A DNA stretch of 11,469 bases from IMG/VR virus record IMGVR_UViG_2671180609_000014. One strand, given 5' to 3'. This DNA comes from a virus. Its lineage: Duplodnaviria > Heunggongvirae > Uroviricota > Caudoviricetes. Below, piece by piece: positions 3,722 through 7,205 of this stretch. The notes below the pieces were generated by a model. That model worked only from the letters and a program-made list of their open reading frames with translations. It was not told where the DNA came from and did not search any database. Both the position numbers and the translations under genes were made by a program. Each line of letters starts with the position of its first letter. Position 1 is the stretch's first letter.

Positions 3722-3906
3722 TGCCAGCATCCTTTTTGTATCGGACGTAAACGGGCCAGCATTGAAAGAATGCATATTTTATTTAATAACTCCCGTTCGT
3801 GTTTTCTCTTGTTAATGGCATCTTCAGTAAATACAGGGTTACTGATAGTGACACCAATTTCAAAACAACCTTCAGACGTATTAACGTTTGGTAATAACGT
3901 TTCCAT
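3718..3906 (-). CDS. dicB: Cell-division inhibitor DicB (62 aa)
   Basis: METLLPNVNTSEGCFEIGVTISNPVFTEDAINKRKHERELLNKICILSMLARLRPIQKGCWQ is near-identical to my recollection of K-12 DicB. ATG at 3906 is preceded by GAGGA 9 nt upstream. It sits downstream of DicF on the same strand, as in Qin. Confidence 0.9.
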   Translation of the reverse strand: METLLPNVNTSEGCFEIGVTISNPVFTEDAINKRKHERELLNKICILSMLARLRPIQKGCWQ

Positions 3907-4075
3907 TATCGCGTCCTCAACAATGAATTTTGTGATGCGGTGCCTGGTGCCTCCAGGTGACGTTAACCAGTTAACAATTAACGCCGGATACAGAGAATCC
4001 ACCCATAACACTGTTTTTAGCTTTAACTGTTCCGCGTGCGCTTAGCCGCATTCACTGCATCACAAAATTCACTTT

Positions 4076-4131
4076 AAAAAGGGCGGACATCAGTTCATGG
4101 GCAAACAGATGCCGCCAAACGTCACCAGAAA
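4076..4131 (-). ncRNA. dicF: DicF small RNA with intrinsic terminator
   Basis: Minus-strand sequence UUUCUGGUGACGUUUGGCGGCAUCUGUUUGCCCAUGAACUGAUGUCCGCCCUUUUU carries the DicF 5' seed (UUUCUGGUGACGUUUGGCGG) and a GGCGG/CCGCC stem followed by a U-run. It lies immediately upstream of dicB. Mature ends are produced by processing, so coordinates are approximate. Confidence 0.75.
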
Positions 4132-5105: not shown

Positions 5106-5324
5106 TTAACGTGGGTATGTAATCATTCTGGCAATGCTTAATGCCGCTGCTTTTTCCAGATTGGTGATATCCTGCTCCAGAGCGGACAGATTTTCAGCCT
5201 GCTTAGCCCTGGCTTCATTGGCCCATTTCAGGTCCTGCACCGCCTTAATTTTCTGGTGCATCCACTCATAAAGTTCATCATCGGTATAGTCTGGCGCGAT
5301 GATGACGGGGTCTCGTTTCTGCAT
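5106..5324 (-). CDS. Small hypothetical protein, 72 aa (positional counterpart of ydfC)
   Basis: ATG at 5324 with AAGGAG 6 nt upstream. Product MQKRDPVIIAPDYTDDELYEWMHQKIKAVQDLKWANEARAKQAENLSALEQDITNLEKAAALSIARMITYPR is charged and predicted helical. Size and position match ydfC of Qin, but I do not recognise the sequence itself. Confidence 0.6.
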   Translation of the reverse strand: MQKRDPVIIAPDYTDDELYEWMHQKIKAVQDLKWANEARAKQAENLSALEQDITNLEKAAALSIARMITYPR

Positions 5325-5396
5325 GTCGGCTCCTTGTGGTTAGCGTTGCCTGCTTTTTAACCACGTCAGGCGAGGTGGTATCCTCTGAGGGGTCTG

Positions 5397-5696
5397 TTAC
5401 TCGAGAGGAAATTGGTTATGAATACAATCAAGTTTTCTTGCCCAGAATGTGGTGGCTAAGTCTTTGACACATCCTTTAAGCCGCAGGGCTCTGACAGTTT
5501 CGCGGGAGCCATCTGCAAAAATTGTGGTCACCTTGTAACTGAAGATGAGTCCTCGCAGTTCGATGACGAAATCGTTGACAATATCTTCGGTGCACTCACC
5601 AGAGACTTTCTGAAGTAAAGGCGCATACCGCTTAGTTACCGCTCTGATAACTCTTACCTGTCCGGCAATGGCGCTGATATCAATATAAAGCGCCAT
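5397..5696 (-). CDS. Hypothetical protein, 99 aa (first ORF of the dicB operon; coding strand uncertain)
   Basis: Co-directional with the dicB operon and downstream of the putative promoter/operator. It has a weak RBS, and a protein-like zinc-ribbon frame with a better RBS exists on the opposite strand (see findings), so the coding strand is unresolved. Confidence 0.4.
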   Translation of the reverse strand: MALYIDISAIAGQVRVIRAVTKRYAPLLQKVSGECTEDIVNDFVIELRGLIFSYKVTTIFADGSRETVRALRLKGCVKDLATTFWARKLDCIHNQFPLE

Positions 5697-5829
5697 CGCT
5701 GTTTCTTTGCTGATCCCTGGACGCCTTCCATTCTGATGTTTGACTCGCCCACTGAGAAATCCTCTGCTTCCCCTTAACGCCGGGTAGCGGAACTGTTTGC
5801 TGAGAACACCGTGCGGTGTCTTGATGAGT

Positions 5830-5890
5830 AGAATTTAGAATAGCCTAAGAGTTATGGTCAAGCTTTTTGTGTAGAAAAACCTAAGCTTCT
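5830..5890 (-). promoter_or_regulatory. Putative early-left promoter with repressor operator repeats (OL-like)
   Basis: Minus strand carries CTTAGGTTTTTCTAC (5885-5871) and CTTAGGCTATTCTAAATTCTAC (5849-5828), matching CTTAGGTTTCTCTAC in the dicA-dicC intergenic region. A TTGACC (-35-like), 17-nt spacer and CTAAAT/TAAATT (-10-like) overlap the second repeat. Confidence 0.45.
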
Positions 5891-5958
5891 TGATGTAAAA
5901 AACACAAGTATTTGAAAGTTTGTGCTTTTTATTACAGAGAGTTGCGAAAAAAGGGGGG

Positions 5959-6366
5959 TTATTTATTTGCGCTTCTTTTGCGAGCTTTGAGTAGTTCTTC
6001 AAAAAGTTTGTTGAAATTCTCAACTCGAGCACGCATCTCTGACAACAGAGCCTTTTGCTCTGACTCAGGCAGTGCGTCGAACAGTTGAAGCAACTCTTTT
6101 TGATCTTCTGTCAGATTGACTGGCTGATTATCTGGGATCGGTTCGCCTGGTTGCTTATCTTCATCTCCAAAAAGAAGCCAAGTCGGCGAGCACTGAAGCG
6201 CCTGGCTCAGTGCGAATAATCTCTTCCCCGCTGGCTGTGTTTCATCTCTTTCCCATTGAGAAATTGTTACGTGAGCCACTTTGACCAGCTTACCTAATGC
6301 GGCCTGAGACAGTTTTAATTTTTTTCGCCTGTATAAGAGGCGAGCACCGAAGGTTTCGTTTTTCAT
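5959..6366 (-). CDS. dicA: DicA-like HTH (XRE family) prophage repressor, 135 aa
   Basis: MKNETFGARLLYRRKKLKLSQAALGKLVKVAHVTISQWERDETQPAGKRLFALSQALQCSPTWLLFGDEDKQP...ALPESEQ...MRARVENFNKLFEELLKARKRSANK has the same length as K-12 DicA and matches my recollection of it closely. It is divergent from a DicC-like gene and upstream of ydfC-DicF-dicB. Confidence 0.9.
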   Translation of the reverse strand: MKNETFGARLLYRRKKLKLSQAALGKLVKVAHVTISQWERDETQPAGKRLFALSQALQCSPTWLLFGDEDKQPGEPIPDNQPVNLTEDQKELLQLFDALPESEQKALLSEMRARVENFNKLFEELLKARKRSANK

Positions 6367-6442
6367 ATTAGGTAATTCTAATTTTTCTTGACTTAGGTTT
6401 CTCTACGATCTAGTTTCCTTAGGAAAATCTAAGGGTTTCGAT
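6367..6442. promoter_or_regulatory. Divergent dicA/dicC promoter-operator region (OR-like)
   Basis: 76-bp intergenic region containing CTTAGGTTTCTCTAC (6392-6406) and the palindrome CCTTAG-gaaaat-CTAAGG (6417-6434). A rightward TTGACT (6388-6393), 17-nt spacer and TAGTTT (6411-6416) could serve the dicC-like gene. Confidence 0.6.
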
Positions 6443-6670
6443 ATGTTGAAAATTGATGCTATAGCGTTTTTTGGCAGCAAAACAAAGCTTGCCAATGTCG
6501 CAGGAGTTAGGCTGGCAAGCGTTGCTGCATGGGGGGAACTGGTTCCTGAAGGTCGCGCGATGCGCCTGCAAGAGGCATCCGGCGGGGAACTTCAGTACGA
6601 CCCCAAAGTTTATGACGAATATCGTAAGGCAAAGCGGGCGGGGCGGTTGAACAATGAAAATCACCACTGA
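6443..6670 (+). CDS. dicC: DicC-like (Cro-position) small regulator, 75 aa
   Basis: Divergent from the dicA-like gene, with ATG 76 bp from the dicA start. Size matches DicC (76 aa), and MLKIDAIAFFGSKTKLANVAGVRLASVAAWGELVPEGRAMRLQEASGGELQYDPKVY... agrees with my imperfect recollection of DicC. Confidence 0.7.
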   Translation: MLKIDAIAFFGSKTKLANVAGVRLASVAAWGELVPEGRAMRLQEASGGELQYDPKVYDEYRKAKRAGRLNNENHH

Positions 6671-7205
6671 ACAGGTTTGTGAGGCTCTGGATACCTGGGT
6701 ATGCCGACCAGGAATGACACAGGAGCAGGCGACGATATTAATCACGGAAGCATTCTGGGCTCTGAAAGAACGCCCGAACATCGATGTTCAACGCGTCACG
6801 TTTAATGATGGCGAGGTTGATCAACGGGCGCTGGGCGTTAACCGGGTGAAGATATTCGAACGCTGGAAAGCTATCGACACCAGAGATAAGCGTGACAAAT
6901 TCACGGCGCTGATTCCGGCAATTATGGAGGCTATCCGGATCAGCGATTTCAGATTGTATTGTGAAATTACTGACGGAAAAAGCATTACGTACATGATCGC
7001 CGGGTTAAACAAAGAATATGGCGATGTGGTGGAGTCCGGGCTGCTTTTTGCGGATCCAGTTGTTGTGGAACGTGAGACTGACGAGCTTATAGAAAAAGCT
7101 ATTGCTTTCAAGCACGCGTATCGTCAGCAATACCAATATTACTTTGCAGATAAACAAATGTCTGCCAGGGGGGCGTATGAGTATCGATGCACTACGATGG
7201 GCTAA
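6654..7205 (+). CDS. CII-position protein, 183 aa (possibly YdaT-like; unverified)
   Basis: ATG at 6654 overlaps the last 17 nt of the dicC-like gene, and the ORF ends 29 nt inside the replication gene. Product MKITTEQVCEALDTWVCRPGMTQEQATILITEAFWALKERPNIDVQRV... contains RWKAIDTRDKRDKFTALIPAIMEAI, which I tentatively associate with the Rac YdaT family. Confidence 0.55.
   Translation: MKITTEQVCEALDTWVCRPGMTQEQATILITEAFWALKERPNIDVQRVTFNDGEVDQRALGVNRVKIFERWKAIDTRDKRDKFTALIPAIMEAIRISDFRLYCEITDGKSITYMIAGLNKEYGDVVESGLLFADPVVVERETDELIEKAIAFKHAYRQQYQYYFADKQMSARGAYEYRCTTMG

Follow-up and report, generated by a model that had tools for sequence, protein, structure and literature searches.

Where does a DicA-like repressor act to keep the genes on either side of its own gene silent? 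The question is raised by a stretch of 11,469 nucleotides from a virus of the Caudoviricetes (IMG/VR record IMGVR_UViG_2671180609_000014; the whole stretch is referred to as the window), in which a gene for a dicA-like immunity repressor lies between a divergent dicC-like gene and a leftward operon containing dicB. An earlier, sequence-only reading had proposed that one 15-bp operator motif occurs on both sides of the repressor gene, in a layout like that of the left and right operators (OL and OR) of a phage switch. We find that dicA is flanked by five predicted operators, which very probably constitute a lysis-lysogeny switch of the type known from phage P22 and from the Qin prophage of Escherichia coli K-12. 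The region is an ordinary and already understood control region, a textbook P22-type switch whose logic holds nothing unexpected. The new points are modest: the left operators are placed by comparison, and helix 2 of DicA is linked to the bases flanking the operator core.

Inverted repeats on both sides of dicA

Bases 5300-6800 of the window are 99.9% identical to an E. coli O157:H7 prophage and 99.7% identical to PPompW prophage records. The dicA-like gene is an open reading frame (ORF) at 5959-6366 on the minus strand, encoding an immunity repressor of 135 aa with an N-terminal helix-turn-helix (HTH) motif (Pfam HTH_3, E-value 4e-14; Pfam gave only HTH families). The protein is 63% identical to K-12 DicA, and its residues 2-69 match the N-terminal domain of the P22 repressor C2, for which DNA complexes have been solved (PDB 1adr/2r1j; E-value 1e-21). 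The dicC-like gene (6443-6670, plus strand) encodes a Cro-type regulator of 75 aa (Pfam P22_Cro, E-value 3e-13) with 83% identity to K-12 DicC. The two genes diverge, with 76 bp between them. Downstream of dicA, the leftward operon comprises ydfC, a DicF-like RNA and dicB, with ydfC and dicB assigned by RefSeq annotation.

The proposed 15-mer was found where it had been placed, as CTTAGGTTTCTCTAC at 6392-6406 on the plus strand and as CTTAGGTTTTTCTAC at 5885-5871 on the minus strand. These copies are equal at 14 of 15 bases, as the Y in the proposed motif implies. Two pairs of related half-sites that had been pointed out were likewise present: the pair at 6417-6434 forms CCTTAGGAAAATCTAAGG, a perfect 6+6 palindrome of 18 bp, and the stretch at 5828-5849 contains TTTAGAATAGCCTAAG. 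The 15-mer as the repeating unit was not borne out, as the true unit is an inverted repeat of 16-18 bp. A model of the form CTTAGR-N4-YCTAAG, with the core TTAG-N6-CTAA in an 18-bp frame, fits five sites. The layout on both sides of the repressor gene stands. The earlier set was incomplete: a site at 6367-6382 had been missed, making five in all. The central four bases of these sites are AAAA, TTTC, TAAT, TTTT and CTAT.

When up to three mismatches were allowed, the 15-mer had four matches in the window, all of them in the two intergenic regions, compared to an expectation of 0.41; none of 200 shuffles reached four. The refined model CTTAGRNNNNYCTAAG, with up to two mismatches, had five matches in 11.5 kb (starting at 5834, 5870, 6367, 6392 and 6418). 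All five lie within the two intergenic regions beside dicA. The expectation for the whole window is 0.94, and a single shuffle of 200 reached five. Shuffling of the 338 intergenic bases alone gave an expectation of 0.045 sites against the five observed, and three sites were not reached in any of 20,000 shuffles. The count of the bare core TTAGN6CTAA, with up to one mismatch, was not enriched in the window (5 versus 3.45 expected, with 44 of 200 shuffles reaching 5). Significance rests only on the location of the matches and on the longer model, not on the count of the bare core. Across genera the sites are conserved, unlike the DNA around them.

Predicted operators and promoters, and a proposed mechanism

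Loci containing dicA were taken from species-representative genomes (Pantoea, Enterobacter, Erwinia, E. ruysiae, E. albertii, Citrobacter and Yersinia) and from IMG/VR; about 240 were usable, of which 163 were distinct. Same-immunity loci are those in which helix 2 of DicA is as in the window (SQAALGKLV), the proteins being 70-100% identical. The immunity region of P22 was read from the annotated record BK000583.

Three predicted operators lie between dicA and dicC. OR1 (6418-6433, CTTAGGAAAATCTAAG) has no mismatches to the model and belongs to the full palindrome at 6417-6434. It is located just past the dicC -10 element, spans both the Shine-Dalgarno sequence of dicC and the position where transcription is expected to start, and occupies the position of the K-12 operator Oc. 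In same-immunity loci it is conserved as CCTTAGnTTTTCCTAAGG, and the stretch from OR1 to the dicA ATG is conserved throughout, as expected for a compact switch. OR2 (6392-6407, CTTAGGTTTCTCTACG), the equivalent of K-12 Om, holds the plus-strand copy of the 15-mer. It has an asymmetric CTAC half-site and is positioned as P22 OR2, which overlaps TTGACT; within the dicC promoter it overlaps the -35 element and takes up the spacer. The form GTAGAGAAACCTAAG is kept across genera. OR3 (6367-6382, ATTAGGTAATTCTAAT), equivalent to K-12 Oa, adjoins the dicA start codon and has a perfect TTAG-N6-CTAA core with A/T rather than C at its flanks. It was found in about 240 loci of both immunity types, at the same place as P22 OR3 beside the c2 ATG.

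The predicted dicC promoter (PR-like; 6388-6416, plus strand) was read from the sequence as a -35 element TTGACT (6388-6393), a 17-bp spacer and a -10 element TAGTTT (6411-6416). Its TTGACT is placed as in the annotated P22 PR and in K-12 dicCp, the start site of which was mapped by 5' rapid amplification of cDNA ends (PMC3441716). A possible -10 element (TAGAAT, 6375-6380, minus strand) of a PRM-like dicA promoter lies inside OR3, 8 nt before the ATG. At this distance from the ATG, the sequence TTAG(A/C/T)AT is invariant in the approximately 240 loci, whichever their immunity type. The PRM -10 element of P22, TAAGAT, is also inside OR3, and the RM transcript starts 4 nt ahead of the c2 ATG. 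The dicA gene lacks a Shine-Dalgarno sequence (6366-6382, minus strand). Because of this, the distance of TAGAAT from the ATG and the parallel with P22 PRM, the dicA mRNA is probably nearly leaderless. Earlier work in K-12 could not find a dicA promoter (PMC3441716, PMC7567609).

Two predicted operators lie on the other side of dicA. OL2 (5870-5885; minus strand CTTAGGTTTTTCTACA) holds the minus-strand copy of the 15-mer and is 9 bp upstream of the leftward -35 element, in the same place as P22 OL2. OL1 (5834-5849; minus strand CTTAGGCTATTCTAAA) fills the spacer and overlaps the -10 element of the leftward promoter, at the place of P22 OL1 and of the K-12 site TGTTAGTCATGGCTAATC. This predicted promoter (dicBp or PL-like; 5832-5861, minus strand) consists of the -35 element TTGACC (5861-5856), an 18-bp spacer and the -10 element TAAATT (5837-5832), and scored 9/12 in a consensus scan. 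Its hexamers are those of the annotated P22 PL (TTGACC-17-TAAATT); K-12 has TTGACC-17-TAATCT. The proposal that the repeats overlap -35 and -10 elements agrees with both assignments: TTGACT of the dicC promoter on one side, and the spacer and -10 element of TTGACC-18-TAAATT on the other.

The left operators stand out when same-immunity loci are compared, as the DNA past the dicA stop codon cannot be aligned among them apart from two islands. The first is (C/T)TTAGGTTTTTCTAC followed by a TTGAyC -35 element, and the second is CTTAGGTTATTCTAAATT. Across 19 diverse same-immunity loci, mean identity to the window was 0.92 for OL2 and 0.86 for OL1, and 0.40-0.49 around and between them. The low score of the -35 hexamer in this comparison reflects an alignment shift, and TTGA is seen in every row.

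In the proposed mechanism, dimers of the DicA-like repressor would bind these sites through the N-terminal HTH, as does P22 C2. With OR1 and OR2 occupied, the dicC start region and the -35 element and spacer would be covered, and dicC, ydaT and the replication genes would be off. OR3, a weak site with A/T flanks, overlaps the likely dicA promoter and could allow autoregulation. On the left, OL1 over the spacer and -10 element, together with OL2 upstream of the -35 element, would silence the operon of ydfC, DicF and dicB. Repression of dicA by the Cro-like DicC very probably takes place at these same sites.

Conservation, regulation and alternative explanations

The bases flanking the operator core co-vary with helix 2 of DicA. 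Where helix 2 is of the SQAA type, the operators have CTTAG half-sites, and in the largest class the base 5' of TTAG is C in 193 cases and G in one. Where it is of the TQRS or TQRE type (the K-12, E. ruysiae, E. albertii and Citrobacter types), the sites occupy the same positions with the form TTGTTAG-N6-CTAACAA, and the position 5' of TTAG holds G in every class and C in none. The E. ruysiae type combines helix 3 as in the window with helix 2 as in K-12 and has the flanking base G, which argues that the operator flank tracks helix 2. The scan of the genome collection yielded 11 DicA loci, and scans of IMG/VR with the K-12 and E. ruysiae proteins returned mostly near-identical loci, so the co-variation rests on few independent lineages.

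A more specific code can be imagined, in which operator position 2 (C versus G) is set by residues 22-23, where helix 2 starts (AA versus RS or RE), and His32 fixes the TTAG core (P22 has Asn32 and TTAAG). Along with the asymmetric but conserved CTAC middle sites, such a code could let several DicA-type prophages share a cell without cross-repression. We regard this as doubtful; if true, the DicF/DicB cell-division modules of O157:H7 would be independently switchable.

The middle sites raise an alternative of their own. The CTAC/GTAG variant and the T-rich spacer of OR2 and OL2 are kept in most same-immunity loci (Escherichia, Pantoea, Enterobacter and Erwinia), and in P22 OR2 and OL2 are likewise the least symmetric sites. 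OR2 and OL2 might then be a separate class, either deliberately weak sites filled only cooperatively or anchors of an OL-OR loop, and not simply degenerate operators. We consider this unlikely, as nothing points to a second protein or to a loop. Furthermore, a weak middle site bound cooperatively is already part of the standard lambda and P22 model, so that this proposal refines the P22/Qin-type switch and does not replace it. The asymmetric CTAC half-site common to OR2 and OL2 gave rise to the 15-mer of the earlier reading and is itself kept across genera. Within that switch, it probably marks sites of intermediate affinity that would need cooperative binding.

Published work on dicA loci bears on which protein uses the sites. 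Operators on both sides of Qin dicA, like lambda OR and OL, have been described with reference to Béjar and colleagues in the 1980s (PMC10448788). DicA binding has been shown for K-12 Oc and is lost when a single A is replaced by C (PMC3441716). By chromatin immunoprecipitation sequencing (ChIP-seq), DicC has a peak on each side of dicA with the motif TT(A/C/T)G...C(G/A/T)AA (PMC11430063), which equals the core common to the window and K-12 sites. For the O157:H7 locus, Pan et al. reported that overexpression of DicA lowers dicB, and that overexpression of DicC lowers dicA and raises dicB; operators were outside the scope of their study (PMC6915034). Of the 12 primers in that work, 11 have exact matches in the window, among them a 50-nt arm identical to 6393-6442, so the study concerns precisely this locus.

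It could be argued from these data that the sites are chiefly targets of DicC, with DicA acting only at the strongest palindrome, OR1, and the leftward operon repressed indirectly. Binding of K-12 DicA to Oc only, and not to Om or Oa alone (PMC3441716), would fit such an arrangement, as would the DicC peaks flanking dicA and their shared core motif (PMC11430063). However, the flanking bases of the sites to the left and right of dicA vary in step with helix 2 of DicA, and K-12 reporter fusions at a position outside the locus show strong repression of dicBp by DicA (PMC10448788). Moreover, both proteins share their operators in P22 and lambda. We therefore judge this alternative to be very unlikely. 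Hardly credible at all is the explanation that chance or composition makes the repeats alike, as stretches of AT-rich promoter DNA or as binding sites of host nucleoid proteins (H-NS, Fis, IHF). Intergenic GC content is 0.41 compared to 0.47 for the whole window, and links of H-NS/Cnu and of Fis to the regulation of Qin have been reported (PMC3441716, PMC10448788), but the composition-matched intergenic shuffles described above led us to reject chance and composition as the cause, and the palindromes are exact, their flanks co-vary with the repressor and their positions correspond to those of the P22 operators.

Several points weigh against reading the five sites as a P22/Qin-type switch. We infer the physical binding of the window DicA and DicC to them, the relative affinities and the promoter assignments. 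The dicC promoter was not reported by the consensus promoter scan, its -10 element TAGTTT is weak (3/6 match), and it was assigned only through alignment with K-12 and P22. K-12 DicA did not bind isolated Om or Oa in an in vivo assay (PMC3441716); by analogy, the weaker sites OR2, OR3 and OL2 may need cooperativity or may lack DicA occupancy. The DicA site at dicB was rated as low-evidence, with its location unknown, in the 2020 Reg-Seq study (PMC7567609). The co-variation separates essentially two or three clades and so represents few independent events. Lastly, there are two OL sites only, whereas three are counted in the P22 and Qin literature; a search of the window with up to three mismatches to the model gave no third site, nor do related loci share a conserved one.

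The sites nevertheless exist, occur far above chance, are conserved, co-vary with the repressor and are placed as the P22 and Qin operators are. Control of both dicC and the early-left operon by the repressor, as originally suggested, is supported by these positions, by conservation, by the co-variation of flank and helix 2, and by the published regulation. The result provides coordinates for the predicted operators through which both the replication genes of the prophage and the cell-division inhibitors DicF/DicB would be silenced. In addition, the conserved OL1 and OL2 islands give the DicA site at dicB a location, by comparison, in the Qin family.

The surrounding prophage and known systems

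A hairpin between an A-run and a U-run (5896-5931, minus strand) follows the dicA stop codon and is a candidate dicA terminator (RNA fold -10.3 kcal/mol, z = -3.0). Hairpins with quite different stems are found at this position in other loci. The hairpin is likely the dicA terminator that separates dicA from OL, and a conserved, possibly bidirectional terminator would fit. It occupies the position at which P22 has OL3.

Downstream of the leftward promoter, the transcript has a conserved leader of about 60 nt (5762-5826, minus strand; CATCAAGACACCGCACGGTGTTCTCAGCAAACAGTTCCGCTACCCGGCGTTAAGGGG), with a mean identity of 0.65 across diverse loci. Loci of Pantoea, Enterobacter and Citrobacter have retained it, as has K-12 Qin, although the following ORFs differ. 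Its small hairpin (CCGC-loop-GGCG) shows two compensatory CG-to-AU changes among 11 sequences, and the consensus fold is a 4-bp hairpin only. Rfam gave no match in the operator or leader regions, and no second copy of the leader, as a nutR-like partner, was found in the window. The leader may be an element of the nutL or put kind, or one that acts in translation, and we claim no RNA mechanism.

In records matched to the window, the annotated order is int, xis, exonuclease, dicB, ydfC, a hypothetical ORF, an HTH protein, a Cro/CI-family protein, a YdaT-family protein, replication genes, paa and hokD. Phage records label the HTH protein dicA, and the Cro/CI-family protein is dicC. The hypothetical ORF, the first of the leftward operon, encodes 99 aa (5397-5696, minus strand; ORF list and RefSeq annotation) and had no Pfam match; in PPompW phage records it is 118 aa (5397-5753, minus strand). 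The DicF-like small RNA (4081-4130, minus strand; Rfam RF00039, 43.5 bits, E-value 1.3e-7) falls just short of the gathering score (48). Downstream of this RNA is dicB (start 3906, minus strand), and a weak STnc100 match (3887-4092, minus strand, 32.5 bits) overlaps the RNA. A sok antitoxin RNA (11246-11395, plus strand; Rfam RF01794, 103.9 bits) adjoins the annotated hokD toxin gene, and the two form a type I toxin-antitoxin pair within the prophage. In several of the closest phage records, which are Stx2a-converting phage entries, the PPompW prophage is annotated inside the Stx2a-converting phage sequence. The prophage is common: among 5,426 complete E. coli genomes, 751 have this immunity type, mostly in single copy.

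Relief of repression in this prophage can be considered in the light of Qin. No C-terminal self-cleavage domain of the LexA/S24 type was found in the 135-aa DicA by Pfam, and its match to P22 C2 ends at residue 69. K-12 DicA is likewise without a cleavage domain, and Qin Rem is an antirepressor that relieves DicA repression (PMC10448788). As DicA lacks this domain, induction would presumably proceed via an antirepressor, as with Rem: by analogy to Qin DicA, the window protein is presumably not cleaved through RecA, and an antirepressor may relieve its repression. In PPompW records, a homologous gene just past the right end of the window is labelled rem (L001, 11968-12228). The prophage may, by the same analogy, keep a complete repressor/antirepressor module.

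A YdaT-family protein is encoded right after dicC, overlapping its end (6654-7205, plus strand; Pfam YdaT_toxin, E-value 3e-5). The lambdoid prophage CP-933P of E. coli O157:H7 has the same feature in its paaR2/ydaS/ydaT region: a CI-like repressor with a leaderless gene, a Cro-like partner followed by a YdaT-family protein, and operators at PR/PRM and PL (PMC8630535). The CP-933P YdaT homologue acts like lambda CII, activating a PRE-like promoter (PMC8630535), and a lambda CII-like role is possible for the window protein by analogy. CP-933P has its own operator repeats and an embedded toxin-antitoxin pair, and the likeness is organisational only.

The resemblance to P22 extends to the individual sites. 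The repressors have homologous N-terminal domains, and the divergent partner in the window belongs to the P22_Cro family. In both systems the operators are inverted repeats in an 18-bp frame with an A/T-rich centre of 4 bp. The P22 repressor contacts operator positions 2-7 and 12-17, leaving the four central bases uncontacted, with A/T preferred (PMC4267663); the 16-bp model for the window coincides with this frame of contacted positions. In both, OR3 adjoins the repressor start codon, OR2 overlaps the -35 element TTGACT, and OR1 lies ahead of cro or dicC. From the repressor ATG to cro, the P22 OR region reads CAT-AGTTAAGTCATCTTAAAT-aaac-TTGACTAAAGATTCCTTTAGT-agat-AATTTAAGTGTTCTTTAAT, and that of the window, from the dicA ATG to dicC, reads CAT-A-TTAGGTAATTCTAAT-ttttc-TTGACTTAGGTTTCTCTACGA-tctagttt-CCTTAGGAAAATCTAAGG. 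The centres of the OR sites are spaced 25 and 26 bp apart in the window and 25 and 23 bp in P22, and those of OL1 and OL2 are separated by 36 and 35 bp, respectively. OL1 covers the spacer and -10 element of the leftward promoter and OL2 is upstream of the -35 element in both, with a spacer of 18 bp in the window (TTGACC-18-TAAATT) versus 17 bp in P22 PL.

There are also differences from P22. The half-site is CTTAGG or CTTAGA in the window and (A)TTTAAG in P22, and no equivalent of P22 OL3 was found in the window. The window DicA, of 135 aa, has a short helical C-terminus and no Pfam peptidase domain, whereas full-length P22 C2 has a C-terminal cleavage domain. The leftward operon carries ydfC, DicF and dicB in place of gene 24 (N-like) and the other early-left genes of P22.

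Another close system is K-12 Qin, with homologous DicA and DicC, the same gene order, and ydfC, DicF and dicB downstream. Both have the TTAG-N6-CTAA core at the same positions, the -35 hexamers TTGACT and TTGACC, and the conserved leader. The first leftward genes differ, with the 99-aa ORF in the window and ydfA and ydfB in Qin, and the window prophage is far less decayed, having kept int, xis, exonuclease and replication genes. The operators differ in their outer bases (CCTTAG...CTAAGG in the window versus TTGTTAG...CTAACAA in K-12): the window sites are not identical to K-12 Oc (TTGTTAGTCATAACTAACAA), sharing its core but with flanks of CC/GG instead of TTG/CAA. Helix 2 of DicA differs as well, being SQAALGKLVKV in the window and TQRSLAKALKI in K-12. 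Given these differences in helix 2 and operator flank, the two prophages would not be expected to share immunity, and the window prophage is probably a heteroimmune relative of Qin.

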